Source: Escherichia phage nepoznato. Taken from it: a stretch of DNA of 64,000 nucleotides. Positions 1,858 through 48,316 of the stretch are shown here, one piece after another. The stretch is from the sequence record NC_052658.1; one strand, 5' to 3'. A model generated the notes under the pieces. That model saw only the letters and a program-made list of their open reading frames with translations. It did not search any database and was not told the DNA's origin. The translations under genes were made by a program, and so were the position numbers. Position 1 is the first letter of the stretch; every line of letters starts with the position of its first letter.

Positions 1858-1885
1858 TAGAAAAATTAAAAAATATTAAATATTT

Positions 1886-5240: not shown

Positions 5241-5272
5241 TTTACTCTCCTACTAATATTTTTGGAGAAGTG

Positions 5273-5301
5273 ATTATAGCTGCTGATTATCTATTTGTCA
5301 A
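5273..5301 (-). promoter_or_regulatory. strong sigma70-like promoter (TTGACA, 17 bp, TATAAT) for the HNH gene
   Basis: Minus-strand reading GTCTATTGACAAATAGATAATCAGCAGCTATAAT, followed by RBS and the ATG at 5240. Confidence 0.6.
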
Positions 5302-5355
5302 TAGACTTCCCAGCAATTAACAAAGTTATTCGATGTGCATCGCTGCACAAAGCCA

Positions 5356-6597
5356 CTATTGATTAATGGTTCCACCAATGAACACAAATGTTTGTGGTTC
5401 AATAACCACTGTTTCACCTGTATTAGGGTTTTCCATGAAACAGTTTTCTGGATATTTTTCTTTCAGTTCTTCAGGTGTGTCAGCAAAAACAGGTTCATCG
5501 TTAACAATGATGAAATATTTTTGTTTACCACACATATCTTCTCTAGGATAACCGCCCTCATCGAGATAAGGTAATACCCAATTCAAAACCCAACTATCTG
5601 CATCGGGGTTACATGTGCACAACATGAAGCTTGTTTCTGATTCTGAACGCATACGTCCCAGAAGATAGAGCATTTCATATTGCGTGAAGTGGGTTAACTC
5701 GTCAAAACCTACCATTGAATACTGTGTACCCTGATGGTTTGTTTCTGCTGTTACGTTATCATTTTCCAAATGATCGAATTTGAGGGTTCCACCACCAGTG
5801 GCTTCAAAAATGATATCCATTGTACTTTCTTTTACGTGTGGTTGTAAAGGAAGATACAAACGTTTTGCTTCTGTAAACAGACCACCTGGTTTACGGTGAG
5901 CAGTGGTGTTCTTACGGAAAAGTATTCCACCAAACAAAGGATCTTTGTAGGCGTATTTTAAAGCTTTCAGCAATAGCAGACGAGACTTGCCGCTATTCCC
6001 AGTAACGAAGCAGTGATCGCCACGTCTAAAGACAATATAGCTGCTTGGAGTCTCAAAACAATATTTCTTATCATCTGTTGAAATAACCTCGTGTATTTTT
6101 AAGTAAGTGCTCTTTTTACCAGGTATGTTAAAAGGAACACGTTTACCGAATGGATTTTCTACATAACCTTGAAGTGGTTTTCCTATTTGCTGTAATGCAA
6201 TAAGATCTCCTACAAGAATCTCGAAATGTTTCTTTGATTTCTTTTTCTTATAGAATACAAAACGGTGTTCCATACTAAGTTCTTGGAACAATCCTACACC
6301 ATTTGTTATTCTGTATAGGTTATCTCCATTTAAATCGTATTCTACAAAATAAGGTGTTACCAATTCTAAACGCTTATTCTTAGGGTTGTATTGGTAAATA
6401 TCCTCTCCCGAATATTCACTAATCTGTCTCCAACCATCTTTTGTAAGATATTCCGTTTCAGCAGAAACACATCCAGCGGCACCACCATAAATCATAACTT
6501 CTGGCATTAAATCCATTGCAAGAGTCTGTTTACCTGGTTGAGCCTTTACTTCAATATCTACTCCAGCTAAACTACCTGCTGCCTTTTTCTTTGCCAC
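5356..6597 (-). CDS. terL: terminase large subunit, N-terminal ATPase segment, with putative mini-intein
   Basis: 413 aa; Walker B-like YSMVGFDELTHF; residues 43-201 start with Cys (CVSAETEYLTKDGWRQISE, Hint block A-like) and end with Asn followed by Ser; removing them joins ...YGGAAG to SGKSRLL..., giving a canonical Walker A GAAGSGKS. Confidence 0.55.
   Translation of the reverse strand: MAKKKAAGSLAGVDIEVKAQPGKQTLAMDLMPEVMIYGGAAGCVSAETEYLTKDGWRQISEYSGEDIYQYNPKNKRLELVTPYFVEYDLNGDNLYRITNGVGLFQELSMEHRFVFYKKKKSKKHFEILVGDLIALQQIGKPLQGYVENPFGKRVPFNIPGKKSTYLKIHEVISTDDKKYCFETPSSYIVFRRGDHCFVTGNSGKSRLLLLKALKYAYKDPLFGGILFRKNTTAHRKPGGLFTEAKRLYLPLQPHVKESTMDIIFEATGGGTLKFDHLENDNVTAETNHQGTQYSMVGFDELTHFTQYEMLYLLGRMRSESETSFMLCTCNPDADSWVLNWVLPYLDEGGYPREDMCGKQKYFIIVNDEPVFADTPEELKEKYPENCFMENPNTGETVVIEPQTFVFIGGTINQ
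5995..6471 (-). other. putative mini-intein (Hint domain, about 159 aa) inside terminase Walker A
   Basis: Codon 6469-6471 is TGT (Cys1); codon 5995-5997 is AAT (terminal Asn); next codon is AGC (Ser+1). Penultimate residue is Gly, not His, so splicing competence is uncertain. Confidence 0.45.
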
Positions 6598-6606
6598 ATT
6601 TCCTCC

Positions 6607-6951
6607 TTATTCAGCAATAATACCTTTTTCTTGCAGTGTTTTAATATATGTTTGTAAACCTAAAACCTTTCGTCTATCTTGCTCCCAAAGAGCGTTGTTT
6701 TGAGTTTGGTTGTTAACAACTTCAGATCTACTGACCCCTTTTGCAATTTGATTTTTAGTGTATGGCACAGGTGTCGATACTTTATCCATCAAATCAGAAT
6801 CTGGACCTCTAACCTTTTCTATTGCTACGGCCTTACACTCATCAATAAGAACTGGGGAAACTTTTGTTGATGATGAACAACCCGTCATCATTAGGGGCAA
6901 AGCAAGACATACTGCCAGAATTAGTTTTTGCATAATTCGTTGTATCCTCAT
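6607..6951 (-). CDS. o-spanin (Rz1-like outer-membrane lipoprotein)
   Basis: 114 aa; signal peptide with lipobox LMMTGC; overlaps the 3' end of the i-spanin gene in another frame, the usual Rz/Rz1 arrangement. Confidence 0.5.
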   Translation of the reverse strand: MRIQRIMQKLILAVCLALPLMMTGCSSSTKVSPVLIDECKAVAIEKVRGPDSDLMDKVSTPVPYTKNQIAKGVSRSEVVNNQTQNNALWEQDRRKVLGLQTYIKTLQEKGIIAE

Positions 6952-7234
6952 TGATCGTTTGTTTCTTCTTCTCTAAATCTGCTTTTAATTGTGCATTGTT
7001 TTTAGACAAGTTGTTTATTTGGGTATTTAATAATGCTCTTTCTTCATCTGCTCTTTTTTGAAGAACATCAAAATCCTGTTTTGCTTTTGCTTGGGCTGCT
7101 TGATATAATTGCGCTTGATAGGCAACACCATCTTTGTAGCCAGACTCATGTATCTTGTTATAAGCAAACATTCCGGCAAGAATAAGAACAACAATTAAAA
7201 CAAAACCTAATACAGTTTTAGTCTTTAGATTCAT
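6842..7234 (-). CDS. i-spanin (Rz-like)
   Basis: 130 aa; N-terminal transmembrane helix (VLGFVLIVVLILAGMFAY) followed by a long coiled-coil-type region. Confidence 0.5.
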   Translation of the reverse strand: MNLKTKTVLGFVLIVVLILAGMFAYNKIHESGYKDGVAYQAQLYQAAQAKAKQDFDVLQKRADEERALLNTQINNLSKNNAQLKADLEKKKQTINEDTTNYAKTNSGSMSCFAPNDDGLFIINKSFPSSY

Positions 7235-7433
7235 TATCTTCTACTTCCTCATAAAATTTTATTTTAGGAAGAGAAGGGGCGTTGTTAACTATCTTCTTCA
7301 CTTCCATCGGTTGAGCCTCCGCTAGGATCTCTTCCCACGTCTTCTCTGTCATCATAAAGTTCTTCCTCCAAGTTCCAAGCCCGTGTGTAATCATTCTTTT
7401 TATCTTTATGATAAGAAGAACGGTTAAAATCAT
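7218..7433 (-). CDS. hypothetical protein
   Basis: 71 aa ORF upstream of spanins; start uncertain. Confidence 0.3.
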   Translation of the reverse strand: MILTVLLIIKIKRMITHGLGTWRKNFMMTEKTWEEILAEAQPMEVKKIVNNAPSLPKIKFYEEVEDNESKD

Positions 7434-7510
7434 TTTTAACTACAAAATTGCGCATATTTTATCCTCCTCATATCTGATCTTATCACAAAAGTATATACAA
7501 TTGCAAGCAT

Positions 7511-7545
7511 TAAAAATAAAAAGCCCCTAACCTTTCGGAGAGGGG
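7511..7545 (-). terminator. intrinsic terminator-like hairpin with U-tract
   Basis: Minus-strand CCCCT...AGGGG stem followed by CTTTTTATTTTT, just after the stop of CDS 7597-7893. Confidence 0.4.
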
Positions 7546-7596
7546 TGTTAAAAATAACAAGGAGGAGGGGGGCAAAGCCCCAAGAGAGGAGAGGGA

Positions 7597-7893
7597 TTAG
7601 ATTACGATCTTTTTAGGAACGTCATCTGTATTCTGCACGGCAGGAGTTTCTTCTTCCATAGCTTCATAATGTTCTTCTAACCATTCTTCTACTTGCTCTT
7701 TAATAGCTTTAGCTGCTTGGAAGCGGAGAGGTTTTGCTGCATCCTTATCATTAACAAGTTCAACAATATATCGCATAGCTTCTAAATAATGCTCTGCAAA
7801 TAATTCTTTTACACTTGCTTGCGCCGCATCCATTGCGTAGATCTGTTGCATTTCGGCTGTTGGTCTTCCACGACCACGTTTTAGTTTAGGCAT
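7597..7893 (-). CDS. small basic DNA-binding-like protein
   Basis: 98 aa; N-terminal KRGRGRP (AT-hook-like); RBS AGGAGGA; first gene after promoter 7915-7943. A small-terminase role is possible from position but unproven. Confidence 0.35.
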   Translation of the reverse strand: MPKLKRGRGRPTAEMQQIYAMDAAQASVKELFAEHYLEAMRYIVELVNDKDAAKPLRFQAAKAIKEQVEEWLEEHYEAMEEETPAVQNTDDVPKKIVI

Positions 7894-7914
7894 AATAAAA
7901 TCCTCCTAAACTTT

Positions 7915-7943
7915 ATCTTAACATATAAAAAATAATAAGTCAA
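7915..7943 (-). promoter_or_regulatory. sigma70-like promoter (TTGACT, 17 bp, TAAGAT)
   Basis: Minus-strand reading CTATTGAATAAAACTTGACT...TAAGAT, upstream of CDS 7597-7893. Confidence 0.45.
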
Positions 7944-7960
7944 GTTTTATTCAATAGATA

Positions 7961-7985
7961 GCAAAAAGCCTCCAATAAGGAGGCT
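7961..7985 (-). terminator. intrinsic terminator closing the tRNA operon
   Basis: Hairpin AGCCTCC-TTATT-GGAGGCT followed on the minus strand by TTTTTGCT; located 3' of the last tRNA. Confidence 0.55.
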
Positions 7986-8100
7986 AGTAAATACTGTTAA
8001 GTTGAAATGCTTTATTATAATTGTGCGTTAAGGAGTCGCACCCCTCCATCTTAGAAGGAACCAGGCAAGGTCTTCAAAGATACCGCTGGCAAGCGATATT

Positions 8101-8179
8101 TGGAGGCGGGAATCGGATTTGAACCGATGATCTCCAGCATATGAAACTGGCGAGGACGACCAGACTCCTCTATCCCGCT
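8101..8179 (-). tRNA. tRNA-Met or Ile2 (anticodon CAU), CCA encoded
   Basis: Hand-folded cloverleaf: T-arm ATCGG-TTCAAAT-CCGAT, anticodon loop TTCATAT, D-stem GAGG/CCTC; A1-C72 mismatch at top of acceptor stem. Confidence 0.65.
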
Positions 8180-8185
8180 ATTATG

Positions 8186-8257
8186 TATCCCGTGCTGGAT
8201 TCGAACCAGCATCACAATAAGCTGTGGAACTCTTATCCTGTAAGTCTAACGGGAAAC
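8186..8257 (-). tRNA. tRNA-like element, anticodon arm not resolvable (possible pseudo-tRNA)
   Basis: Canonical T-arm GCTGG-TTCGAAT-CCAGC and a 6 bp acceptor pairing, but no 5+7+5 anticodon stem-loop found by hand. Confidence 0.3.
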
Positions 8258-24699: not shown

Positions 24700-25308
24700 A
24701 TGCAGATCGTATGTGATTGGGATTTAGTTGTGGCTCCATTAGATGTTGCTTGGTTAGAATGGTTGAATAAGATTAGTGGACTTGGTGTTAAGATAGACAC
24801 ATTCACAAAAAATGCAGACTACGATCTTACCAACTACTTCCCTGGTTTCAGGGAGGAGTTCAATATAGATCCTTACGGATTCCTGGATAATCCTCATCTC
24901 TATGATACAATGGGTTTTGTTACAGGTATGCCGGATTTCTTAAAATATGTTTCAAGAAAAGGTAGCAATCTTTTGATCGCAAGTGTTACAAAAGGTGGTC
25001 ACTTAAGTTCTAAACATAAACATGTTTTAAGAACATTAGATACGATTGATTTTAGCAAAGGATCTGGTAACGGCTTTTTTGCTACAAAAGAAAAATATTT
25101 ATTGCCTTGTGATATAGCAATAGATGACAGGGCTGATAACCTACTATATTTTCCAGATGAAGTGGTTAAAATATATTTTAATACACCTTATAAAGATAAC
25201 CATCTAGAAGAACTAAAGAAAAAACCAAATGTTGTGATCACAGGTTTAGAAGATCAGTGGCTAACATGTTTGGATGTTTTTAACACTTTGAACAATTTTA
25301 AAAACTAA
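24700..25308 (+). CDS. HAD-superfamily 5'-deoxyribonucleotidase-like phosphatase
   Basis: 202 aa; N-terminal MQIVCDWDLVV (DxD motif I); RBS GGAGG. Confidence 0.45.
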   Translation: MQIVCDWDLVVAPLDVAWLEWLNKISGLGVKIDTFTKNADYDLTNYFPGFREEFNIDPYGFLDNPHLYDTMGFVTGMPDFLKYVSRKGSNLLIASVTKGGHLSSKHKHVLRTLDTIDFSKGSGNGFFATKEKYLLPCDIAIDDRADNLLYFPDEVVKIYFNTPYKDNHLEELKKKPNVVITGLEDQWLTCLDVFNTLNNFKN

Positions 25309-25317
25309 GGAGAAAAA

Positions 25318-26316
25318 ATGACAAAACAGATTTCGGCTAGTATTATTGCGCATTCCATCACTGAAGACGGAAAAGAGATTGTAACTTTTGAACTGGAATA
25401 TCCACGTATTATTCATTCAGAATTGATGACTCACCGCCTGTTCAGTCGTAATGCTGCTTCTAGCCGTGCTATACCTGTTAAAACACTGATTGAAATGGTG
25501 CGAAATCAGCCTGCTCGTCCTTATCGTTTTGGGGCTAACCAACCTGGTATGCAGGACAAAGGTGTTGACCATGATGCTCTTATTGATGCAGGTTATACTG
25601 CTCAAGAGTGGTGGGATCTTGCCGCGCTTAGTGCAGCACGTTTTGCAGAAGAATTCTCTTTGGCAGGGTACCACAAACAAGTTGCAAACCGTCTTCTGGA
25701 ACCTTTCCAACGAATTAAAACAGTTCTGACAGCAACAGAATATGAAAATTTCTGGTGGCTACGTGATGACAAAGAAGCCGATCCTACTATCGAAGCTTTG
25801 GCTAAAGAGATGCACAAAGAGTATGAAGGATCTACACCAGAAGTGCTGAAACCAGGGCAATGGCACACACCTTATGTAGACCATTTCTATGATAGTATTG
25901 GCACAGAAGGTGACGATCATTTTGTTTTTGGTGGATACTACGTTCAAGATGAATCTGGAGAAGTTGTTGTGCTTACTTTGGAAGAAGCCAAAGCTATTTC
26001 AGCTTCGTGTTGTGCACAGGTTAGCTATCGTCGTTTAAATGCAACTAAAGATAAAGCTTTAGATATCTATGGTCGTTTGCTGACTGGGCGTAAGGTTCAT
26101 GCTTCTCCGTTTGAACATCAAGCTACTCCAATGCAAGAAACATGCGAACAATATGGAGAGAACTGTTTTGAAGATTTGTTTATCAATGCTCCTTGGGATT
26201 TTAACTCTTGGGAACCAGGTATTACCCATGTAGATCGTAATGGTAAGTTTTGGTCTGGCAATTTCAAAGGCTGGATTCAACATCGTCAACTTTTAACAAA
26301 TCATACTAAATGGTGA
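25318..26316 (+). CDS. ThyX-like protein (flavin-dependent thymidylate synthase family)
   Basis: 332 aa; ELMTHRLFSRNAASSRAIP resembles the ThyX RHRx7S motif but first Arg is Thr and the protein is longer than typical ThyX. Confidence 0.45.
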   Translation: MTKQISASIIAHSITEDGKEIVTFELEYPRIIHSELMTHRLFSRNAASSRAIPVKTLIEMVRNQPARPYRFGANQPGMQDKGVDHDALIDAGYTAQEWWDLAALSAARFAEEFSLAGYHKQVANRLLEPFQRIKTVLTATEYENFWWLRDDKEADPTIEALAKEMHKEYEGSTPEVLKPGQWHTPYVDHFYDSIGTEGDDHFVFGGYYVQDESGEVVVLTLEEAKAISASCCAQVSYRRLNATKDKALDIYGRLLTGRKVHASPFEHQATPMQETCEQYGENCFEDLFINAPWDFNSWEPGITHVDRNGKFWSGNFKGWIQHRQLLTNHTKW

Positions 26317-27092: not shown

Positions 27093-29333
27093 TTGATTCG
27101 TTTTGTAACTAAATCTAATGGTAAGACAGAGGAGTTTAATCCAGAAAAACTTCGCAAGTGGTCTGAATTTGCAGCAGGTAAACTAAACTGGTCTGAAATT
27201 GAATTAGAAGCTGTGAAGCGGTGTTATGACGGTGTGTCTACACGTGATCTGCATAAAGCAATGATTGCAGCGTGTATTGACAAGAAAACACAAGCTTACA
27301 GTGATATGGCAGGAAGACTTCTTCTGGGTATGATTTACAAACAGGCTCATGGGGGATACCACAGTATCCCTTCACTGAATACCTTTTATCATGATATGGT
27401 AGAACGTGGACATTGGGCTAAAATGGATTATACTGATGAAGAGATCAAAGAAATCGGTAAGATTGTAAAGCATAATAAAAATCTAACTTATGGTTATTCT
27501 GTTTTACGTCAGATGGTAGATAAATATCTTATTCGAGATGCAGTAAACGATGTGGTGCATGAGTCTCCACAGTTTCTTTTCATTGGTATCGCAATGAAGG
27601 TTATGGAGATCCAACCAAAAGAACGCCGTATAGAAGATATTAAAAAACTTTATACTTATGTTAGCGATCTTAAGATTAATCTGCCATCGCCGTATCTGAC
27701 AACTCTACGAACTCCAATCAAAGGAAGTGCGTCTTGTTGTTTATTCCGTGCAGACGATACGGCAGAATCTTTAGCCATTGCTAATTACTTAGCTCATGAG
27801 TATACGTTGAATAACGCAGGTATTGGTGTTAATCTTCAAACTCGTGCCACTGGTCAAGGTGTTAAGAATAATCGTATTATTCATGGTGGTCTTCTTCCGT
27901 ATCTGAAATGGATGGAAGATAGTGTTGGAGCTTCGAAACAAGCAAGCCGTGGAGGTAGTGCTACAGTTACCTTTACCATACTTGAACCAGACTTCGACGA
28001 TCTGATTCGACTGAAGAATCCAACAACACCTATAGATAAACGAGTAGACAAACTGGATTATTCTATTGTTGTTAACCGTTCGTTCTTGCGTCGAGCAGCA
28101 AAAAACGAAGATTGGATGTTAGTTAGTTGTGATGATGCTCCTGAACTTTATGAAGCTTTGTATAAAAGTGAAGAAGAGTTTGATGCAGTTTATGACAAAG
28201 TAAGCCGTCGTCGCATTAAGAAAAAATTTGTTAAGGCTCGTGATCTTCTGACAGAGATTATTGTTCAACGTGCAGAAACAGGACGTATTTACATGTTCTT
28301 TGCTGACAACGTTAACAACCATACACCTTTCTTGGATACGGTGTATCAATCAAACCTGTGTCAAGAGATCTTCTTACCAACTAAAGCTTTCCACAGTATG
28401 CCGGATCTCTTTACTGGTGAGAATACAGAAGATCAAGAATTGGCTTTATGCTTCTTATCTTCTATTGTTGCTGGTCGTGTCTTACCTGAAGAATATGAGG
28501 ATGTTGCATACTACACTGTATTGACAATTGACAACGTTATTGAAACAATGGATTATCCATTTAAACATAACGAAATAACTGCTAAAGCACGTAGATCTAT
28601 TGGTGTAGGCATTACAAACTTAGCGCATTACTTGGCAAGTAATTTTGTAAATTATTCAGATGCTTATGCTAAAAAATTAATGCATGAACTTGCAGAACGT
28701 CATTACTTTTGGTTGGCAAAAGCCTCTCTGCGTCTGGCTAAGGAAAAAGGTAATGCGGAATGGATCGATAAAACCAAATGGCCTCAAGGTTGGCTACCAA
28801 TTGACACTTATGCTAAAACAGTAGATAGTATCGGTAATTTTGATCTTAAAATGGACTGGGAAGGCTTACGTGCTGAAATCATTGAACAAGGTGGTATCCG
28901 TAACAGTGTCTTGGCTGCTATTGCACCTAATGAGTCCAGCAGTTTGGTAAGCAATACTACTAACTCTCTGTACCCTGTTCGTGATACTATTATGTATAAA
29001 CAAAGTCAGAAAGGTAGCGTATTATTTATTGTTCCAGACTACGAAAAACTGAAAATGTTCTACCAATCCGCCTGGGATACTCCGGCTAAAGACCTTGCAG
29101 AAATGTATGGTATCTTTACCAAGTTTACGGACCAAGGAATTTCTTGTGATTCTTGGCTAGATTATTCTAAATTGGTAGGTGGACGTTTATCAGTGAAAGC
29201 CGAGATGCAGTTTATTCTGAATTTTGCTAGATTGGGTGGCAAGTCGTTGTATTATCTTAACAGTAGAACGAAATCAGCAGATTCTTTAGCACAAGAAGAT
29301 TCTGATGGCGGTTGTGAAGCTTGCAAGATGTGA
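27093..29333 (+). CDS. nrdA: ribonucleotide reductase large subunit (class I NrdA-like)
   Basis: 746 aa; TTG start after RBS AGGGAGGAG; N-terminal ATP-cone-like region; NLCQEIFLP motif; C-terminal Cys pair ...GGCEACKM. Confidence 0.8.
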   Translation: MIRFVTKSNGKTEEFNPEKLRKWSEFAAGKLNWSEIELEAVKRCYDGVSTRDLHKAMIAACIDKKTQAYSDMAGRLLLGMIYKQAHGGYHSIPSLNTFYHDMVERGHWAKMDYTDEEIKEIGKIVKHNKNLTYGYSVLRQMVDKYLIRDAVNDVVHESPQFLFIGIAMKVMEIQPKERRIEDIKKLYTYVSDLKINLPSPYLTTLRTPIKGSASCCLFRADDTAESLAIANYLAHEYTLNNAGIGVNLQTRATGQGVKNNRIIHGGLLPYLKWMEDSVGASKQASRGGSATVTFTILEPDFDDLIRLKNPTTPIDKRVDKLDYSIVVNRSFLRRAAKNEDWMLVSCDDAPELYEALYKSEEEFDAVYDKVSRRRIKKKFVKARDLLTEIIVQRAETGRIYMFFADNVNNHTPFLDTVYQSNLCQEIFLPTKAFHSMPDLFTGENTEDQELALCFLSSIVAGRVLPEEYEDVAYYTVLTIDNVIETMDYPFKHNEITAKARRSIGVGITNLAHYLASNFVNYSDAYAKKLMHELAERHYFWLAKASLRLAKEKGNAEWIDKTKWPQGWLPIDTYAKTVDSIGNFDLKMDWEGLRAEIIEQGGIRNSVLAAIAPNESSSLVSNTTNSLYPVRDTIMYKQSQKGSVLFIVPDYEKLKMFYQSAWDTPAKDLAEMYGIFTKFTDQGISCDSWLDYSKLVGGRLSVKAEMQFILNFARLGGKSLYYLNSRTKSADSLAQEDSDGGCEACKM

Positions 29334-29377: not shown

Positions 29378-30463
29378 ATGGCAGCAATTAATTTACACAA
29401 TGAAGTTTACAAGACAGGGAAATATCCAGTATTTTTGGGGGAGCAATTAGGGATCTTTGATTCTGTTAACGTGACTTATCCAGAAATGCACAAACTCTAC
29501 AAACTTCAAAAAGCACAAGATTGGGATGAAAACGAAGTTAACTTGGATCAGACACGTAAAGATTTCGTAGCTTGTTCTAAAAACAACTATGATGTTATGA
29601 TTAAAAACTTATCGTTCCAATGGGAAAATGATTCTCTTGCAAAATCAATCATCACTTTGTTCTCTCCATTCTTGAGTAACAATGAAGCCTGTGCTATGAT
29701 GATGAAGCAGAGTGAAATGGAAGTTCTCCATGCGTTAACGTATTCTGAAATAATCCGTCAATGTACTCCAGATCCAATCGAAGTCATCAATCAGATTATG
29801 ATTAATGATAAAATTTTCAATCGTATGGGTATCATTGCTGATATCATGGGTCAGTTGGAAGAAGCTGGTCATAAGTATGCTCTAGGATTGATTGAAGCTA
29901 ACGATGAACTTCGACTGCTGATTCTTAAAGGGATGGTAGCCCTGATTGGGTTAGAAGGTATCCAGTTTATATCTTCCTTCTCTGCTACTTTTGCTATGGC
30001 AGAACAACAACTGTTTGTTGGAGCTTGTAAACTGATCCAGAAAATTATGCTAGATGAAATCTTGCATGTTAAGATGGATTATGCTGTAATTGATGCATTG
30101 ATGCATGACCCAATTTGGCGTAAAATTTACGAAGACAACATTGAAGAGTTGACTTTGATCCTCGACACTGTTGTTGAACAAGAGGAACAGTGGTGTGACT
30201 ACCTGTTTAGTGAAGGTCGTTTTATTGTAGGTCTTAACGCCGAATTGTCTAAACAGTGGGTTTATTTCAATGCTGCTCCTATTTATCGTCGATTGAAAAT
30301 GAAAGCCAAGTTTAAAGCACCTAAACATAGTCCTTTAGCTTGGATGGAAAAATGGTTGAATCCTGATTTGATTCAGTCAGCAGCCCAAGAGATTCAGTTA
30401 ACTAATTACAAATTGAATTCAGCTAACAAAGATCTCTCTGATGATGAGGAGCTTGACTTCTAA
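29378..30463 (+). CDS. nrdB: ribonucleotide reductase small subunit (NrdB-like)
   Basis: 361 aa immediately after nrdA; size and position fit a class I R2 subunit; iron-ligand motifs not individually verified. Confidence 0.75.
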   Translation: MAAINLHNEVYKTGKYPVFLGEQLGIFDSVNVTYPEMHKLYKLQKAQDWDENEVNLDQTRKDFVACSKNNYDVMIKNLSFQWENDSLAKSIITLFSPFLSNNEACAMMMKQSEMEVLHALTYSEIIRQCTPDPIEVINQIMINDKIFNRMGIIADIMGQLEEAGHKYALGLIEANDELRLLILKGMVALIGLEGIQFISSFSATFAMAEQQLFVGACKLIQKIMLDEILHVKMDYAVIDALMHDPIWRKIYEDNIEELTLILDTVVEQEEQWCDYLFSEGRFIVGLNAELSKQWVYFNAAPIYRRLKMKAKFKAPKHSPLAWMEKWLNPDLIQSAAQEIQLTNYKLNSANKDLSDDEELDF

Positions 30464-30961: not shown

Positions 30962-31288
30962 ATGGGTATTGATATCGAATGGCGTATGTTACAGGGTGCA
31001 CCTTTTAATAAGTGGGAAGAGGCTGTAGGAGAAGATCCTAGAATTGAAGAAGAATTTGATGGAGATTTTAACTGGTTCTTACAAGAAGGTCTTGACTTAA
31101 GTCGCATCTCTCCTTTCTACGATGCGGATGAGTCTTATTGCATATATGGCATTTATTTAGAAGGTGGAGAAGGAAGCGTAGCTGTAGATCTTGAACAACT
31201 AAATGCAAATGCAAAAGAAGCCTATGCAGAGCTACTTGAAAAATATAACATTAAAACGGAGACTATTATTTCTCAACATGTCTGGTAA
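30962..31288 (+). CDS. hypothetical acidic protein
   Basis: 108 aa ORF. Confidence 0.35.
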   Translation: MGIDIEWRMLQGAPFNKWEEAVGEDPRIEEEFDGDFNWFLQEGLDLSRISPFYDADESYCIYGIYLEGGEGSVAVDLEQLNANAKEAYAELLEKYNIKTETIISQHVW

Positions 31289-31297
31289 GGAGAGAAA

Positions 31298-31864
31298 ATG
31301 AAAGTAGAAAAAACAAAAATTGAAGGTGCGGTAATTATCAAACCAGACGTTTATAAAGATGATCGTGGTTTCTTTTTAGAAACATACAATGAACAAAAAT
31401 ACGAAGATATCATTGGTAAACAGACTTTCGTTCAAGATAATATGTCTAAATCAAACTTCGGTGTTTTGCGAGGAATGCACTTTCAAACAAATAATCCGCA
31501 AGGTAAGCTTGTTCGTTGTGTAAGTGGGGAAGTATTGGATTTCGCTGTAGACTTACGTAAAGACAGTCCAACTTACGGTGCTTGGGACGGTGTTGTTCTT
31601 CGTGCACGACACCATACGCAGTTTTGGCTTCCTCCTGGTTTGGCACATGGTTTTATAGTTTTGAGTATGGATGCGATCTTTGAATACAAATGCACAACTC
31701 CATACGACCCTTCTAGTGAACAAAGTTTACGTTGGGATGATCCTGACATAGGGATCGATTGGGGCTTCGATATGATTTTTGACGAAGGTTTTAAACCTAT
31801 CTTATCAACAAAAGATGCAATGGCTAAATCTTTTCAACAGTTACGTAGCGAGGGTGTATGCTAA
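31298..31864 (+). CDS. rmlC: dTDP-4-dehydrorhamnose 3,5-epimerase (RmlC-like cupin)
   Basis: 188 aa; strings shared with E. coli RmlC: DDRGFF, VLRG.HFQ, KLVRCV.GEVLDFAVDLRK.SPTYG, HGF.VLS, WDDPDIGI.W. Confidence 0.75.
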   Translation: MKVEKTKIEGAVIIKPDVYKDDRGFFLETYNEQKYEDIIGKQTFVQDNMSKSNFGVLRGMHFQTNNPQGKLVRCVSGEVLDFAVDLRKDSPTYGAWDGVVLRARHHTQFWLPPGLAHGFIVLSMDAIFEYKCTTPYDPSSEQSLRWDDPDIGIDWGFDMIFDEGFKPILSTKDAMAKSFQQLRSEGVC

Positions 31865-32700
31865 CATATCTGGTATTGGGCGGTAATGGACAACTGGGAC
31901 AAGCTTTACGTAAAGTGGTTCCTTCAAATGTATCTTTAATTTATCCTAAAGAACGTGTAGATATTACAAATTTTGAAGCTGTGCGAAACACTATTGTTGA
32001 AGATTATGTAGATGGTGTTATTAATTGCGCCGCTTATACGGCTGTAGATAAGGCAGAACATGATTTTGCTACTGCTTTGGCTGTTAATGCGTATGGACCT
32101 GCAAATATTGCGGCAGTGTGCAGCAAACTTAAAATTGATTTTGTGCATATTTCTACAGATTATATTTTTAATTATTCTCATCCTATTTTTGAAGATACTA
32201 CACCTAACCCAATAAACAATTATGGGTATACGAAAGAACTTGGTGAAAAAATGGTGCGAGGAGTTAACCCAAATGCATATATTATTCGAACAACCTCGGT
32301 ATATAGAGAATTTGGAAATAACTTTCTAAAAACCATGTTGTCTCGCTATAATGATGGACAACGTGATTTTATTATTGTTGCTGATCAGTTCTCTTGTCCA
32401 ACATATGCTCCAGATTTAGCAGAAGCTATTTTTGAAGTATTAAAAACAGGTTGGTCAAGGTCTGTTAAGACTTACCATTTTGCAGGAAGCCATCTTATTT
32501 CTTGGGCGGAGTTTGCGGAAAAGATCTTGACACAGATGCCAGAACCTGTTAAGATATCGGCGGTATCAGCTTCAACCTATAATGCTCCAGCAGCACGTCC
32601 GGTGAAGTCACAACTAGTAACCAGTCACTATCTTACAAAATCAGATTTAAATAAAGGTATTGAACAGTCTTTAGCAGTATTACTTAATAAGGAGAGGTAA
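31858..32700 (+). CDS. rmlD: dTDP-4-dehydrorhamnose reductase (RmlD-like)
   Basis: 280 aa; GGNGQLG Rossmann motif, AAYTAVDKAE, STDYIF, YGYTKELGEK, NNFLKTML, PTYAPDLAEA, all alignable to E. coli RfbD. Confidence 0.75.
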   Translation: MLTYLVLGGNGQLGQALRKVVPSNVSLIYPKERVDITNFEAVRNTIVEDYVDGVINCAAYTAVDKAEHDFATALAVNAYGPANIAAVCSKLKIDFVHISTDYIFNYSHPIFEDTTPNPINNYGYTKELGEKMVRGVNPNAYIIRTTSVYREFGNNFLKTMLSRYNDGQRDFIIVADQFSCPTYAPDLAEAIFEVLKTGWSRSVKTYHFAGSHLISWAEFAEKILTQMPEPVKISAVSASTYNAPAARPVKSQLVTSHYLTKSDLNKGIEQSLAVLLNKER

Positions 32701-32960
32701 TGGAATTTGTAATTTTTGGTAAACCTAACTGTCAATTTTGCGAAATGTCAAAACAACTATTAACCATGCGCAATAAACAGTTTGAATATTTAAGTCTTGA
32801 TCAAGACTATGATTTAGAATCAATGACTAAAACAGTTGTTGATCTTACCGGAGTTCCTCCACGCACATTTCCACAAATTCTGTCTGAAGTGAACGGGGAG
32901 GTAACATACGTAGGCGGTTTTACCGAACTGCGTGATCTCATGGCTCAAATTGCGGAGTAA
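32700..32960 (+). CDS. glutaredoxin / NrdH-like redoxin
   Basis: 86 aa; MEFVIFGKPNCQFCEM with CxxC active site. Confidence 0.55.
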   Translation: MEFVIFGKPNCQFCEMSKQLLTMRNKQFEYLSLDQDYDLESMTKTVVDLTGVPPRTFPQILSEVNGEVTYVGGFTELRDLMAQIAE

Positions 32961-35692: not shown

Positions 35693-36127
35693 ATGTTACA
35701 AGTTCCTGCTAAGTTTGTTGAAGGCGCTATCCACTCTTACCGTCAAACATGTAAGAGGGCAAGAAACTGTTTAGATGGTCTGGTGGCAAAAACCTATACT
35801 GTTGAAAAGAAGAAACGTTGGTTTGGCAAAGATGTTTACGAAGTTAATATTTTTGGTGAACATAAACTAAACCACGATACTCCTGAAAACATGTTAGAAA
35901 TATTTCTAAGAGATGACAAAATATCTCCTATGGATTACCAACTTTTAAAATTTTATGATTCTTCTTTGGCTATTGATAAGTTTGTTGAGGATATTCTGTC
36001 TAGAAAAACAGATAAAAACACTTATCCTCTAGAGGCTGATCAAATAGGATTATTAAACGAGATTTCATCTTTTAAAGAGTTGGATAATATTACAAAAGAG
36101 GAGATTTTAGATGGCATTAGATTATGA
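35693..36127 (+). CDS. hypothetical protein
   Basis: 144 aa ORF. Confidence 0.4.
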   Translation: MLQVPAKFVEGAIHSYRQTCKRARNCLDGLVAKTYTVEKKKRWFGKDVYEVNIFGEHKLNHDTPENMLEIFLRDDKISPMDYQLLKFYDSSLAIDKFVEDILSRKTDKNTYPLEADQIGLLNEISSFKELDNITKEEILDGIRL

Positions 36128-36620
36128 TCGCCCAACGAGCGATTATTATCCAACACCGCAAAAAGCAATCAATAGTTTGTTTAGTGTTATAGATTTCAAA
36201 AATCTAAAGGAAGAAGGTTGGGTTTTTGCAGAACCTTGCAGAGGTGAAGCTGAAGCGATTTATCGCCATTTTCCTGAAGGTTCAGAATATTGTGAACTTG
36301 AAGAAGGTAAGGATTATTTTAGTCACGAGTGGGAAAATCGTCCCGACATTATAATCACAAACCCTCCATTTAAGTTAGCAATGGAGTTCTTGGAAAAGAG
36401 CTTAAAAGAGGCGGATGTTTGTATTTATCTTCTTCGGTTGGGCTTCTTGGAGTCAAAGAAACGACGAGAGTTCCATCAAAAGAATCCACCGACAAACCTT
36501 ATAGTTCTTTCAGAACGGCCTTCGTTTGTTGCAGGTGGAACAGATAAGACAGCATACGCTTGGTATGTATACGACCCAAAGAATCGTTTGGGCCTCTCTC
36601 AACCATTTTATTTTGTTTAA
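36111..36620 (+). CDS. DNA N6-adenine (or N4-cytosine) methyltransferase-like
   Basis: 169 aa; DYYPTP near N-terminus and catalytic-type IIITNPPF. Confidence 0.5.
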   Translation: MALDYDRPTSDYYPTPQKAINSLFSVIDFKNLKEEGWVFAEPCRGEAEAIYRHFPEGSEYCELEEGKDYFSHEWENRPDIIITNPPFKLAMEFLEKSLKEADVCIYLLRLGFLESKKRREFHQKNPPTNLIVLSERPSFVAGGTDKTAYAWYVYDPKNRLGLSQPFYFV

Positions 36621-43309: not shown

Positions 43310-43708
43310 ATGGGTTGGTGTGATCAGTCACAAAGTTACTTCAAAGTAACACATGCGGATCTCAACAAAGCAAGAGTGAAGTTGTTGAGTATCGAAAAAG
43401 AAACAGTGGCTATTGACAAACGTCTCCGAGAGAGTAAAGTGGTAATCACTTCTTGGTTTGGACTGAAACGTAAAGTCATGACGCAACGAGAGCATGTAGT
43501 TAAAAATATGCACGGTTGGGCTTGGTTCCACGATATGGCAGAACATTTGGGATACATTTCTCCTGAAGAACATGATCTCTTGGAGTTACGCTACCGCCTT
43601 CCAGATGTAGAAGATTTAGATTTGTGGATCAGTTCAGAACAGATCTTCCTAACAGAAAGTGATTGGCGTAAAGTTATGGCTTGTCTTGAATGGAGGGGTA
43701 ATGAGTAA
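43310..43708 (+). CDS. hypothetical protein
   Basis: 132 aa ORF. Confidence 0.4.
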   Translation: MGWCDQSQSYFKVTHADLNKARVKLLSIEKETVAIDKRLRESKVVITSWFGLKRKVMTQREHVVKNMHGWAWFHDMAEHLGYISPEEHDLLELRYRLPDVEDLDLWISSEQIFLTESDWRKVMACLEWRGNE

Positions 43709-44384
43709 AACAGTTTTGTCTATGTTTGACGGATCTGGGATCATGGTGTTACGTTATGCCGAAGCAGGTCACAAGTGTTTTTGTGTAAACGCTGATGAAG
43801 GGGACCACGGTAAATACGAGGTTAGGATGGAGCACCCAAACATAACCTATGTGAATGCTTGGATAGATTCTACATTCAACCCTGAAGATCATGGAATACC
43901 TAAACCCGATATTATTTTTGGATTTCCACCTTGCACTATGTTAGCAGGTAGTGGTAGCAAACACGAACGCAGCACAGAGGAATTAGATGAAGCTTTAGCT
44001 AATATTCGTGTAGTGGAAGATTTGGGTAACAAATACAATGTTCCTTGGATGATTGAGAACCCAGTAGGTAAACTTTCAACCTTATGGCGTAAACCAGATT
44101 TTTACTTTGATCCTTATGAGTATGGTGGGTATTTGTTTGAAGAGGAAGGAAGCTTTCATCCTAAAATGCCTACCCGTGATGGGTATACAAAGAAAACTTG
44201 TATTTGGCACGGCAATGGTTTTGTTCAACCAGTGAAGAAACCAGTAGATCATATAGGCTGCTTCTGGGGTTGGAAAAGCTTAGGTGGAGCTAGTGCAAAA
44301 ACAAAACAACTTAGATCACTAACCGCACGTGGTTTTGCTCGTGCAGTGTTTTTGTCTAACAATCTTCTAGATAAGGAGAAATAA
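43701..44384 (+). CDS. DNA cytosine-C5 methyltransferase-like protein
   Basis: Track ORF 43659-44384 trimmed to the ATG at 43701 after RBS GGAGGGG; motif I SMFDGSG, motif IV GFPPCT, ENP (ENV-like). Confidence 0.45.
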   Translation: MSKTVLSMFDGSGIMVLRYAEAGHKCFCVNADEGDHGKYEVRMEHPNITYVNAWIDSTFNPEDHGIPKPDIIFGFPPCTMLAGSGSKHERSTEELDEALANIRVVEDLGNKYNVPWMIENPVGKLSTLWRKPDFYFDPYEYGGYLFEEEGSFHPKMPTRDGYTKKTCIWHGNGFVQPVKKPVDHIGCFWGWKSLGGASAKTKQLRSLTARGFARAVFLSNNLLDKEK

Positions 44385-45034: not shown

Positions 45035-45052
45035 TGCCAACATCTGAACAAA

Positions 45053-45080
45053 GCCTCCTGTTTCAGGGGGCTTTTCTTTT
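45053..45080 (+). terminator. intrinsic terminator
   Basis: GCCTCCTG-tttc-AGGGGGC followed by TTTTCTTTT. Confidence 0.55.
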
Positions 45081-45092
45081 ATAGGAGGGAAT

Positions 45093-45572
45093 ATGTTTCA
45101 AGTAAATATCAATGTGCATAATAGTTACTCTGATTGTGAAACGTGTGGCTATAATTCATCTAATGTTGTTCGTATTAGTGGCGATTTAGGAGAAGCTTCT
45201 TTTGGAGAAGAAGCAAGTTGCTTTAGTGGTATGGATGCAGAATGGAATGATATTGCACATTGGTTGGTGAGCAAACTAAAAGAAAAAGAGAAACCCTTTC
45301 CTACTCTGCTTGATCGTTCCTTTGTAGAAGATGCAGGTAAAGCATATGCGGATTATGCTTATGCAGACGGGAAATATTTGGAAGATGATAAGGCTAACCA
45401 TTTGCTTTATGTTTATTATGAAGCTGAATCTGCCTACGATAATTATTATAGCATGTCTAACATCCTCCGTCTATTTGCAGAGTTTGATATTTATTTTGAA
45501 GTAGAATTTTCAGAAGATGATACTTACGAATATGATTCTTATGATCCATTTGAGGAGGACGAGGGTGAATGA
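45093..45572 (+). CDS. hypothetical highly acidic protein
   Basis: 159 aa rich in Asp/Glu/Tyr; C-terminus ...EDDTYEYDSYDPFEEDEGE. Confidence 0.4.
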   Translation: MFQVNINVHNSYSDCETCGYNSSNVVRISGDLGEASFGEEASCFSGMDAEWNDIAHWLVSKLKEKEKPFPTLLDRSFVEDAGKAYADYAYADGKYLEDDKANHLLYVYYEAESAYDNYYSMSNILRLFAEFDIYFEVEFSEDDTYEYDSYDPFEEDEGE

Positions 45573-46309
45573 TAGAACGAAAACCCTTACCAGATAGAGA
45601 TTACTTGTTATCAAGGTTTAGTGTGGAGAATGGTCGTCTTGTTTGGAAACCTAAACCTTCTACAACAAAAGAGAACAAAAGGTGGAATAGCAGATACGCA
45701 GGGAAGATTGCAGGGACTATTGATAAAGTTGGTTACTCTCATGTCAAAATAGATGGTATTGTATACTTGGAGCACAGAGTTTGTTTTAAAATGTACCATA
45801 ATTACTGTCCAGATGTTATAGATCATGATGATGGCAATAAGCTTAATAATGCGGAAAGTAATTTATTGGATAGTAACTATTTATTAAATAATAACAATAG
45901 ACATGTGGATGGGTTAGAAGGTATTTATGAAAAGGATGGTGTTTTTCTTTGGGTTATAAACTACAACCAAGAAACTTTCTCTGTTTCAGGTTTCAAAACT
46001 AAAGAGGAAGCTACTGTAGCTAGAGCTTTAGCAAAACAAGAAATTTTGAAAGGATCTTATATCAAAAAAGAAAAGAAGCGTATAGATAACACTTCAGGAT
46101 TAAGTTGTGTGTTTGTGGCAACAAGAGAGAGAACATTCTTTTTCAAGTTTGTGTTTGACAAGACCACGTATTGCAAATATGGTTTCAACGATCCAGAGAG
46201 ATGTGCTATAGCTCTGGAGAAGCTAAGGTTGAAGGTGATGAAAGAAAAATATAAACCTGCAAATAAAAGCATTTGCGAAAAACATAAGGAGGAGATTTAT
46301 GCCGCGTAG
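45569..46309 (+). CDS. HNH endonuclease
   Basis: 246 aa; ...DVIDHDDGNKLNNAESNLL HNH core. Confidence 0.6.
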   Translation: MIERKPLPDRDYLLSRFSVENGRLVWKPKPSTTKENKRWNSRYAGKIAGTIDKVGYSHVKIDGIVYLEHRVCFKMYHNYCPDVIDHDDGNKLNNAESNLLDSNYLLNNNNRHVDGLEGIYEKDGVFLWVINYNQETFSVSGFKTKEEATVARALAKQEILKGSYIKKEKKRIDNTSGLSCVFVATRERTFFFKFVFDKTTYCKYGFNDPERCAIALEKLRLKVMKEKYKPANKSICEKHKEEIYAA

Positions 46310-47114
46310 AGTCATATTCATAACTGGCGCAGGACTATCTGTGGATAGCGGTATCCCAGCTTTTAGAACAGATACTTCTTCAGGGGAGGCGTTATGGTCT
46401 TCTTATAATCTTTCTGAAGTCTGTGACATTTTCAACTTCCGTGACGGTTATCAGCAAGAACAAGGTATTCTTGATGCTATGGGCGGTTTAGATGCGGAAG
46501 GATATAACCTCTACCGTAAAACTCACGACTTTTACAATAAACGTCGCGCGGAATTAGAGAAAGTTGACCCGAATCCGGCACATCTTCAGATTGGGGAATG
46601 GTTCAAAAAACATGGTGCAGAAAAGATTATTAACATCACTACTAACGTTGATGACCTCCTTGAACGAGCAGGAGTAGATAGGGAAGAAGTGCTACATGTG
46701 CATGGTTTTCTTCCTGAAATTACTTTTCAAAGAAAAGCTGGACAACCTACAATTGTAAAAGATGTTGGTTATCAAGCCATAGATGTAGATGACTACCATT
46801 ATGTAAAACCTAATGTAATCTTCTTTGGGGAAGCTGCTCCACTTTACACAGATATGTATCATATTTTTGATACACTGACGGCTCAAGATATGGTTATCGT
46901 TGTAGGCTGCTCTAACCAAGTAATCAACTTCAACTGGGAACTCTTCCCTGCCCTGAATATTGGGGTTAAGATGGTTGTAGTTAACCCAGGTTTGAATTTT
47001 GTAGAACAAACTCTCTACGAAGAACGTGGAGTGCTTGTCTACCGAGAGAAAGCAGGAACAGTCTTCAGTGATGAAGGCTTTATCAAAATGGTCGAAGACC
47101 ACTTAAACAAATAA
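46299..47114 (+). CDS. Sir2-family protein (NAD-dependent deacylase / ADP-ribosyltransferase-like)
   Basis: 271 aa; ITGAGLSVDSGIPAFR, TTNVDDLLERAG, LHVHG, NVIFFGEAAP; no CxxC zinc module. Confidence 0.65.
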   Translation: MPRRVIFITGAGLSVDSGIPAFRTDTSSGEALWSSYNLSEVCDIFNFRDGYQQEQGILDAMGGLDAEGYNLYRKTHDFYNKRRAELEKVDPNPAHLQIGEWFKKHGAEKIINITTNVDDLLERAGVDREEVLHVHGFLPEITFQRKAGQPTIVKDVGYQAIDVDDYHYVKPNVIFFGEAAPLYTDMYHIFDTLTAQDMVIVVGCSNQVINFNWELFPALNIGVKMVVVNPGLNFVEQTLYEERGVLVYREKAGTVFSDEGFIKMVEDHLNK

Positions 47115-47123
47115 ACCACTCAA

Positions 47124-47146
47124 GGGGCTTCGGCCCCTTTCTTATT
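47124..47146 (+). terminator. intrinsic terminator (GGGGC-UUCG-GCCCC)
   Basis: Hairpin followed by TTTCTTATT. Confidence 0.55.
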
Positions 47147-47157
47147 AGGAGAATAAA

Positions 47158-47430
47158 ATGACTGAAGAAATCCGTGATTACTACCTTGCACATTACGTTT
47201 ACTACTTTGCTAATGCTACACAAAAAGGGGAAGGTAATCTTTACTTGGCAACAGGGCATGGAACAGGTGTTAGGAAATCAAATATTGATAATGCCTTGGC
47301 TCAAGTGGCTGCTGGGCTAGAAGATAAACTTAAAACACCTGTAGTTGTAGTGATGCAAAACATAAGTTACCTAGCAAGTTGTACTGAAACCGAATTTAAC
47401 GCGTCTGAAACGCAATCTAACGAAGAATAA
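47158..47430 (+). CDS. hypothetical protein
   Basis: 90 aa ORF; last plus-strand gene before the convergent terminator. Confidence 0.4.
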   Translation: MTEEIRDYYLAHYVYYFANATQKGEGNLYLATGHGTGVRKSNIDNALAQVAAGLEDKLKTPVVVVMQNISYLASCTETEFNASETQSNEE

Positions 47431-47440
47431 AATAAAGGCA

Positions 47441-47475
47441 CCCACTTGGGTGCCTTTCCTATTTTAGAGCGTCTC
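47441..47475. terminator. bidirectional intrinsic terminator at the convergence point
   Basis: Hairpin GGCACCC-actt-GGGTGCC with T-run downstream on the plus strand and A-run upstream. Confidence 0.6.
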
Positions 47476-47499
47476 TGTTTGATTTAGGTGGGTTCTAGC

Positions 47500-47730
47500 T
47501 TACTTGTGTAGTGCTCTCTCGTATAACTCAATAATCAATTCATCCTCTACTGTAATACGCGCCATTTGATCCGTCTTAAGGATTGTTGGTTGGTAGTGGT
47601 GCATTTCACTATTGATACTACAATCCCATTCGTCATTACCTAAATACTCTCCTATGTGGATCTTAACCATAAACGGAAACGGGTTATCTACCAAAAATGC
47701 CATACAACCTTCTTCGATTTTATTTAACAC
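47500..47730 (-). CDS. hypothetical protein
   Basis: 76 aa ORF. Confidence 0.35.
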   Translation of the reverse strand: MLNKIEEGCMAFLVDNPFPFMVKIHIGEYLGNDEWDCSINSEMHHYQPTILKTDQMARITVEDELIIELYERALHK

Positions 47731-47821
47731 ACGACCTCCTATTGCTACAGATATGAAAAAACCCGCCGAAGCGGGTTCTATTGCTACGATAGAATCACTA
47801 TCCTATAGTATTGTTTCTGTG

Positions 47822-48103
47822 TCAAGCCTTAGCGTAGAAAAACTTCTCATATTCAGCTTTTGTTACGATTGTGGGGCAACCTTTTGTTCCATCCTCGATA
47901 ACAGGGGCTTCTACCATTCTGGTGTTGAATAAGCAATAATTTCCACGCATGTAAATACCCAGTTTTGTTTCTACGATGTGCTCTTTACTTACACTTGAAA
48001 ACTTAATCTCACCATCGGAGTCTCTTATAGCAATAAGCGCATGTTCGGGCCAATCTTTTCCTTTTGCTCCTAAAGCATTATACAATTCTTGAACGAGTTC
48101 CAT
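47822..48103 (-). CDS. hypothetical protein
   Basis: 93 aa ORF. Confidence 0.35.
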   Translation of the reverse strand: MELVQELYNALGAKGKDWPEHALIAIRDSDGEIKFSSVSKEHIVETKLGIYMRGNYCLFNTRMVEAPVIEDGTKGCPTIVTKAEYEKFFYAKA

Positions 48104-48115
48104 ATGACCTCCTTA

Positions 48116-48316
48116 TTAAATAACAAATTTTTCTTCTTCTGGCTTATCGTAATCTGGAGAATAAACATGTGCGGGATTAAAACCTTTAAAATTTCCGCGA
48201 CCTTTACGTGGACAGTTGAATGTGCGAGCTTGATGATCCCCAAAAGATTTCCCACAATGCATACATTTAAAATCAGTGCGTTTAGTCATGCCATATCTCC
48301 TTTTAAAAGGCTGCAC
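48116..48316 (-). CDS. hypothetical zinc-ribbon protein
   Basis: 66 aa with CMHCGK...FNCPRKG. Confidence 0.35.
   Translation of the reverse strand: MQPFKRRYGMTKRTDFKCMHCGKSFGDHQARTFNCPRKGRGNFKGFNPAHVYSPDYDKPEEEKFVI

Follow-up and report, generated by a model that had tools for sequence, protein, structure and literature searches.

An rmlC-rmlD gene pair in Escherichia phage nepoznato as the probable downstream half of an ancestral rhamnose operon

The rmlC-rmlD pair and the missing rmlB-rmlA segment

The 64,000-nucleotide stretch of Escherichia phage nepoznato analysed here (NC_052658.1; hereafter the window) contains two adjacent plus-strand genes, rmlC and rmlD, whose predicted products would catalyze the last two steps in the biosynthesis of deoxythymidine diphosphate (dTDP)-L-rhamnose. 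The window belongs to the genus Phapecoctavirus of the Stephanstirmvirinae, is about 99% identical to the phages iGC_PHA_EC001 and Mt1B1_P17, and aligns with the segment at ~87.1-151.2 kb of the latter. The rmlC gene (31298-31864) encodes a putative dTDP-4-dehydrorhamnose 3,5-epimerase of 188 amino acids and rmlD (31858-32700) a putative dTDP-4-dehydrorhamnose reductase of 280 amino acids, which belongs to the short-chain dehydrogenases/reductases (SDR). The start of rmlD overlaps the stop of rmlC by 7 nucleotides and the rmlD stop overlaps the start of a glutaredoxin gene by 1 nucleotide, suggesting that translation of the three genes is coupled.

RmlC matched the Pfam family PF00908 over profile positions 1-167 of 168 (E 7.8e-67) and phrog_8784 with an E-value of 3e-93, and scored 225.3 bits against the NCBIfam model TIGR01221, for which the equivalog cutoff is 155.75 bits and positions 1-174 of 176 were covered. 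It is 49% identical to RfbC of E. coli K-12. Alignment with solved RmlC structures and K-12 RfbC showed that the catalytic residues are kept, namely His61 (in RGMHFQ), Lys70 (GKLV), Tyr130 (FEYK) and Asp173 (STKD), which we take to be the counterparts of the His63/Asp170 dyad, the substrate-binding Lys73 and the acid Tyr133 of the Salmonella enzyme. Relatives with 3-mono-epimerase activity, such as 4hmz, matched far more weakly (E 1e-25 versus 1e-56).

RmlD matched PF04321 (E 1.9e-72) and scored 235.8 bits against TIGR01214, a narrow pass over the cutoff of 224.05, while the identity to K-12 RfbD was 31% across 288 aligned columns. When aligned with 3sc6, 1vl0 and K-12 RfbD, the protein was found to keep the GxxGxxG motif (GGNGQLG, residues 8-14), Thr100 (STDY) and Tyr122/Lys126 (YGYTK). 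The closest solved structures were the Bacillus/Clostridium-type enzymes 3sc6 and 1vl0. A preliminary description of this DNA had noted that both proteins align along their length with the E. coli dTDP-rhamnose enzymes, and the Pfam matches, equivalog scores and conserved catalytic residues confirm the two predicted proteins as true full-length RmlC and RmlD homologues. The chemistry expected from these assignments is 3,5-epimerization followed by NAD(P)H-dependent reduction of the 4-keto group.

The similarity to the bacterial RmlABCD enzymes (E. coli rfbBDAC; Salmonella RmlC 1DZR and RmlD 1KBZ) thus extends to equivalog-level matches and catalytic residues. In contrast to the bacterial systems, however, the phage encodes just the last two steps, its RmlD is nearer to Firmicute-type enzymes (3sc6, 1vl0) than to that of the host, and its genes are located in a nucleotide-metabolism operon rather than in an O-antigen cluster. 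Recent capture of the genes from an E. coli host was rejected since the identities to K-12 RfbC and RfbD, given above, are too low.

A tblastn search with phAPEC8 RmlA, phAPEC8 RmlB and K-12 RfbA gave no match at E <= 0.01, either in the window or in 150 kb of Mt1B1_P17. This agrees with the preliminary description, according to which the phage lacks RmlA and RmlB and makes only the final two steps of the pathway. The phage phAPEC8 and many other relatives carry the gene order rmlB-rmlA-rmlC-rmlD-grx at the same locus, and RmlB and RmlA of phAPEC8 each clear the equivalog cutoffs. A base-level comparison with phAPEC8 showed that exactly 1,876 bp, the rmlB-rmlA segment, are missing from the window. 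The edges of the segment in phAPEC8 (marked by a slash) read TAAGGAGA/ACTGATG at the rmlB start and GCGGAGA/GAAAATG at the rmlC start. The junction in the window reads TAAGGAGAGAAAATG and contains a single GGAGA, whereas the four-gene relatives have two such motifs, one on either side of rmlB-rmlA. This junction and the ribosome-binding site, GGAGAGAAA, occupy positions 31289-31297 of the plus strand, with the lone GGAGA at 31289-31293.

The two-gene state arose from an ancestral four-gene phage operon by a deletion of 1,876 bp and is not a designed minimal pathway. This deletion, between the two GGAGA motifs, put rmlC immediately after the ribosome-binding site of rmlB. The sister genus Justusliebigvirus shows the same synteny, with the order nrdB ... 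rmlB-rmlA-rmlC-rmlD-grx-lysozyme-PhoH-HslV in phi92, so that the four-gene form is the ancestral one. Four genes are present at this position in about 70% of the sequenced relatives. The locus and its flanks in the four-gene phages (phAPEC8, tuntematon and ESCO5, as well as phi92) are the same as in the window, RmlC is 99-100% identical within Phapecoctavirus, and a glycosyltransferase cassette is kept elsewhere in the genome; the difference is the 1,876-bp segment.

We estimated the frequency of the two forms with junction-spanning megablast queries of the two-gene and the four-gene type. The window-type junction was present in 20 GenBank/RefSeq records, corresponding to 17 distinct phages (Mt1B1_P17, ZCKP1, anhysbys, ESCO37 and 13 further phages), compared with 45 records for the four-gene junction. 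The sampled two-gene members were isolated in Egypt, Denmark, Indonesia and France. A scan of IMG/VR with RmlC yielded 2 loci only, too few for a census.

An additional lesion was identified in the Justusliebigvirus Eryne, in which a deletion of ~545 bp fuses residues 1-310 of RmlB in-frame to residues 159-289 of RmlA, leaving rmlC and rmlD intact. The fusion gene is an open reading frame (ORF) of 436 amino acids at 2586-3896 of the examined Eryne locus, and we interpret it as a second, independent loss of RmlA function, in this case in the sister genus.

Neighbour-joining trees of rmlC and of rmlD mixed two-gene with four-gene genomes, and on the basis of this interleaving we rejected the idea that the two-gene phages all go back to one clone. 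Either recombination may have separated the indel from the flanking sequence, or the deletion may have recurred at the same microhomology. The interleaved topologies fit the recombination already documented in Phapecoctavirus, in which REC is a recombinant of ESCO5 and ESCO37. We also observed that phiWec181 (LC739534.1) and phiWec188 (LC739537.1) combine a phAPEC8-type RmlA (97%) with an adjacent RmlC that is about 65% identical to that of the window, a mismatch indicative of mosaic exchange within the rml cluster.

Host supply of the first steps and selection on the retained genes

The enzymes RffH and RffG for the biosynthesis of the enterobacterial common antigen (ECA) yield dTDP-4-keto-6-deoxy-D-glucose, which is the substrate of RmlC. 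A homologous gene pair of the rmlB-rmlA type, annotated as rffG and rfbA, was present in 5,423 of 5,426 complete E. coli genomes, and the position of the rffG/rffH pair is that of the ECA cluster (wecA-wzzE-wecB-wecC-rffG-rffH-rffC-rffA-wzxE-rffT). For the downstream half, the phage rmlC-rmlD DNA was too diverged to be used as a query against E. coli (14 weak matches), and K-12 rfbD was used instead. With this query, rfbD was detectable in 2,386 of the 5,426 genomes (44%), leaving 56% without it.

These distributions suggest a pathway that is split between phage and host. The host RffH and RffG, in many strains along with RfbA and RfbB, would supply dTDP-4-keto-6-deoxy-D-glucose, the phage RmlC (3,5-epimerase) and RmlD (NAD(P)H-dependent 4-reductase) would turn this intermediate into dTDP-L-rhamnose, and conserved phage glycosyltransferases encoded in one cassette (gp102-gp105 of Mt1B1_P17) would then use the product as their donor. 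The loss of rmlAB would be tolerated because the near-universal RffH and RffG of the host provide the missing steps, and rmlCD would be kept while rmlAB is expendable because more than half of the E. coli strains cannot make dTDP-L-rhamnose. Such a split would explain the loss of half a pathway, given host ECA enzymes that are near-universal and an rfbD gene that is patchy. The intermediate is also consumed in the ECA branch of E. coli, where RffA and RffC lead on to dTDP-Fuc4NAc; that branch differs in being made up of host enzymes with another end product, and the phage enzymes would compete with it for the intermediate.

The rmlC and rmlD reading frames were intact in all eight of the sampled two-gene genomes. 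We calculated the ratio of nonsynonymous to synonymous polymorphism (pN/pS) for these eight genomes and for six four-gene genomes, and obtained values for rmlC of 0.037 and 0.016 and for rmlD of 0.148 and 0.160, respectively. These ratios indicate that both genes are under strong purifying selection in the two-gene phages, at a level indistinguishable from that in the four-gene phages, and hence that they are probably still in use.

The glycosyltransferase cassette and its possible acceptors

The preliminary description had proposed that RmlC and RmlD could build a sugar donor and that glycosyltransferase genes should be looked for beyond the window. Four such genes, gp102-gp105, were found in consecutive order at 45046-48190 of Mt1B1_P17, outside the window, and all four encode members of PHROG glycosyltransferase families. 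The gp102 protein has an unknown fold, gp103 combines an invariant DxD motif with a generic GT-A fold (model pLDDT 87.7), and gp104 and gp105 are paralogous GT-B enzymes of the GT4-like type (gp104 model pLDDT 94). Sequence searches of the PDB with gp102, gp103 and gp104 produced no usable matches. The structural neighbours of gp104 include SdgB and Gtf3, which are O-glycosyltransferases that act on adhesins, in addition to enzymes for small molecules and teichoic acid. The distribution of gp104 matches that of the rml genes; it is present in Phapecoctavirus, Justusliebigvirus and a few Klebsiella relatives, is retained in the two-gene phages and gave no matches in Vequintavirus.

Unrelated temperate prophages of Enterobacter and Serratia carry homologues of gp102, gp103 and gp104 with the gene order conserved, and a gp103-gp104 pair was found in Pseudomonas and in metagenomic phages. 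The cassettes of these prophages and metagenomic phages are always located directly upstream of the genes for terminase, portal and capsid proteins. The cassette of an Enterobacter huaxiensis prophage contains an SDR gene of the dTDP-glucose-4,6-dehydratase type (6354-7376 of the examined locus), the product of which shares 30% identity with phAPEC8 RmlB and contains the STDE and YxxxK motifs, with TIGR01181 as its best profile at 180 bits, below the cutoff. The location of this gene inside the cassette lends independent support to the use of a 6-deoxyhexose nucleotide sugar by the glycosyltransferases. Chromosomal homologues of the gp104-type GT-B protein (42-45% identity) were found in Trinickia symbiotica and Burkholderia dolosa (1742-8026 and 2821-8236 of the examined loci, respectively), where they adjoin an intimin/invasin-type inverse autotransporter and an unannotated protein of ~560 amino acids. 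Since this layout is typical of adhesin-glycosylating enzymes, it suggests that the family can act on surface proteins.

The explanation that we favour, with moderate confidence, is that rmlC and rmlD represent the functional downstream half of the ancestral operon, which is fed by the host and provides the donor for the cassette, and that the acceptor is probably not DNA. In a more specific and tentative version of this account, RffH and RffG of the host and RmlC and RmlD of the phage would together make the donor in any E. coli strain, and the mobile gp102/gp103/gp104-like cassette would rhamnosylate a protein, most plausibly a component of the virion. That the acceptor is a protein rather than DNA, and perhaps a part of the virion, is our leading guess and the weakest link of the argument; a protein is favoured because the prophage cassettes are located near head genes, the chromosomal homologues are located near adhesin genes and the gp104 fold resembles SdgB and Gtf3. 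Should this be borne out, rhamnose-based protein glycosylation would have been described for the first time in phages that infect Gram-negative bacteria. Several phages of this type are considered for therapy or biocontrol, and a glycan on the virion surface would matter for immune recognition and stability. The natural polymorphism between two and four genes offers a genetic handle on the use of rhamnose by large lytic coliphages.

Virions of mycobacteriophages are reportedly glycosylated by phage-encoded glycosyltransferases. The similarity to that system is in the phage glycosyltransferase pairs and in a prophage cassette that adjoins the head and packaging genes. The systems differ in the donor sugar and the glycosyltransferase families, and the cassette of the phapecoctaviruses is part of the replication module.

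Several observations weigh against the proposed role of the locus. The presence of the cassette in the phage of the window is read from its near-identical relatives, and the cassette of the phapecoctaviruses is located in the replication module and not beside structural genes. The fold searches gave a generic GT-A and GT4 likeness that is not specific to any acceptor, and the top folds for gp104, 6kih and 3mbo, are those reported for putative DNA arabinosyltransferases. The rml and the glycosyltransferase genes are both core genes of the Stephanstirmvirinae, so that their co-distribution in this subfamily is not phylogenetically independent; the independent support comes from the single Enterobacter huaxiensis prophage. 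The C4 stereochemistry of the RmlD reaction may be such that the product is 6-deoxy-L-talose and not rhamnose, an alternative left standing because the equivalog score is just 12 bits over the cutoff. Part of the polymorphism in the pN/pS estimates may predate the deletion, since the two-gene genomes do not form a single clade in the tree of either gene. Finally, the searchable literature yields no biochemical, genetic or other experimental study of these phage rml and glycosyltransferase proteins.

The alternative that survives best, although we consider it unlikely, is that dTDP-rhamnose is used for altering the lipopolysaccharide core, the O-antigen, ECA or another glycan of the host envelope, thereby blocking superinfection or adsorption to debris. 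GT-A and GT4 enzymes often build envelope glycans, the fold neighbours include TarP, TarM, PglA and PimB, and these phages recognize surface glycans, as seen in the dependence on wecB and on the NGR glycan; furthermore, the phage genes would give rhamnose synthesis to the 56% of E. coli strains without rfbD. However, a strictly lytic phage has a short time for remodelling, and no flippase, polymerase or membrane-embedded partner was found, the maximum Kyte-Doolittle hydropathy over 19 residues being <=1.65 for gp102-gp106. Nor are the prophage copies located at the positions typical of lysogenic conversion; they are late and terminase-proximal. Overall, the gene neighbourhoods of the glycosyltransferases point to a protein acceptor at least as much as to a host glycan.

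Hypermodification of the phage DNA, with dTDP-rhamnose as the donor onto a hydroxylated or hydroxymethylated base in analogy with the use of glucose in T4, is rather improbable. Olsen et al. 2020 put forward rhamnosylation of hydroxymethylated bases in these phages, and the location of the rml genes within a nucleotide-metabolism module is consistent with it, as are the folds that gp104 shares with putative DNA arabinosyltransferases. Weak local matches of gp103 to the TAGT family (PF20691, E 1e-3, below the cutoff) and to the T-even beta-glucosyl-hydroxymethylcytosine alpha-glucosyltransferases (phrog_842, E 8e-6, 39 residues) point in the same direction, but the matches span fewer than 40 residues and the fold of gp103 is that of a generic GT-A enzyme. 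The phi92-like phages have the whole pathway as well as the same glycosyltransferases, and yet Maffei et al. 2021 described them as "exceptionally susceptible" to restriction-modification "despite ... a putative dTDP glycosylation machinery". In addition, the small prophages with the cassette have no base-modifying gene in their 16-kb neighbourhoods.

The composition of the genome also argues against hypermodification. We compared observed to expected (O/E) counts of 6-mers in the 150 kb of Mt1B1_P17, defining palindromes as testable if the expected count was >=5. The O/E ratio was <=0.25 for 15 of 54 testable palindromes, compared to 0 of 38 in T4 and to 19 of 3,908 non-palindromic 6-mers. 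For example, there were 0 copies of GGATCC, CTGCAG, CAGCTG and CCATGG versus expected numbers of 26, 30, 17 and 16, and 143 copies of GTAC versus 456. The same pattern was seen in the window, with GGATCC and CTGCAG at 0 versus 8.3 and 13.3 expected and GTAC at 55 versus 176; GGATCC, CTGCAG, CAGCTG, CCATGG and GCATGC are all absent from positions 1-64000. This extreme avoidance of restriction palindromes argues, indirectly, that restriction enzymes have access to the DNA. The avoidance concerns palindromes that contain G or C; none was seen for palindromes of A and T only or for the sites of EcoRV and HindIII.

The enzymes expected for T4-type modification were not detected. At the level of BLAST, from which remote homologues could escape, the T4 dCMP hydroxymethylase (gp42) gave no match better than E 2.3 and there was no detectable homologue of the T4 alpha- and beta-glucosyltransferases or of the dCTPase. 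The sole thymidylate-type enzyme seen is ThyX-like, and no hydroxymethylase of the ThyA type was detected. The likeness to the glucosylation system of T4 and the arabinosylation systems of RB69 and DLP3 is in the supply of a nucleoside diphosphate sugar and in the presence of several GT-B transferases near nucleotide-metabolism genes. It does not extend to a ThyA-family hydroxymethylase or to a hydroxylase, neither of which was found here; site avoidance is strong, the relatives are restriction-sensitive, and the donor would be a dTDP-6-deoxyhexose. Rare, site-specific modification of DNA may occur. In summary of the two uses mentioned in the preliminary description, the idea of a sugar donor is plausible now that glycosyltransferases have been found, while DNA as its acceptor is disfavoured by the restriction-sensitive sister genus, the avoidance of palindromes and the failure to detect a T4-like hydroxymethylase.

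A role in metabolic control is very unlikely. The feedback inhibition of RmlA-type thymidylyltransferases by dTDP-L-rhamnose is well established, and RmlC and RmlD could in principle drain dTDP-4-keto-6-deoxyglucose to this product, thereby inhibiting RmlA and sparing dTTP for the replication of the phage genome or starving ECA synthesis. The location of the genes between nrdAB and the glutaredoxin gene, near ThyX-like, MazG-like and NT5C-like genes, and the AT-richness of the genome (GC content ~0.38) are consistent with such a role. However, the ~70% of relatives with four genes also encode RmlA and RmlB, which are consumers of dTTP, and the co-inherited glycosyltransferase cassette suggests that the sugar is transferred. 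A variant in which ECA precursors are diverted so as to deplete an ECA receptor of the phage was rejected, since most relatives encode RmlA and RmlB and since the receptor of Justusliebigvirus is now reported to be the NGR glycan and not ECA, which weakens any receptor-starving idea.

Lastly, that rmlC and rmlD became useless with the deletion of the upstream half of the pathway and are merely not yet degraded is effectively refuted by the intact frames in eight of eight two-gene genomes and by pN/pS ratios of about 0.04 and 0.15 that equal the four-gene level, and it is also at odds with the presence of the allele in 17 distinct phages from at least Egypt, Denmark, Indonesia and France and with the availability of the substrate from the host.

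Previous records and the surrounding genes

The observation as such, the pathway and the variant without rmlAB are already known: more than 100 records carry annotated rml clusters of the Stephanstirmvirinae, Olsen et al. 2020 and Maffei et al. 2021 have commented on them, and the rmlAB-less variant has been recorded for ESCO37. New to this study are the mechanism of the deletion and its census, the Eryne lesion, the quantified redundancy with host genes, the selection test, the site-avoidance evidence and the mobile cassette linked to deoxyhexose.

The genes that surround the rml pair are mostly those of nucleotide metabolism. Upstream in the same plus-strand array are nrdA (27093-29333) and nrdB (29378-30463), which encode a class Ia ribonucleotide reductase (PF02867, E 3e-97, and PF00268, E 6e-33, respectively). 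A conserved plus-strand ORF of 108 amino acids and unknown function (30962-31288; phrog_15453) borders the rml genes on the left in both genera, and the right edge is the glutaredoxin gene (32700-32960, plus strand; 86 amino acids; PF00462, E 1.8e-9), a member of the nrd module. Further upstream are a ThyX-like gene (25318-26316, plus strand; 332 amino acids), for which the match to the Pfam Thy1 profile is weak (33 bits) and partial, and a flanking NT5C-like nucleotidase gene (24700-25308). The Pfam searches thereby bear out NrdA, NrdB, the glutaredoxin and the ThyX-like protein as the neighbours previously proposed for the rml pair.

Two other proposed neighbours, the C5- and N6-methyltransferase-like ORFs at 36111-36620 and 43659-44384, did not gain the same support, with zero matches in Pfam. 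We note that RefSeq refers to the homologues of these two plus-strand ORFs and of a minus-strand ORF at 1313-1792 as "DNA methyltransferase". The label has no Pfam match behind it for the former two, and the ORF at 1313-1792 instead matches Peptidase_S78_2, an XkdF-type prohead protease (E 1.4e-11). Canonical ThyX proteins bear an RHR motif; the ThyX-like protein in the window is unusually long and has ELMTHRLFSRNAASSR at the place of this motif. The GC skew of the window flips sign at about 12000 and 47000, matching the switches of the coding strand from minus to plus and back to minus.

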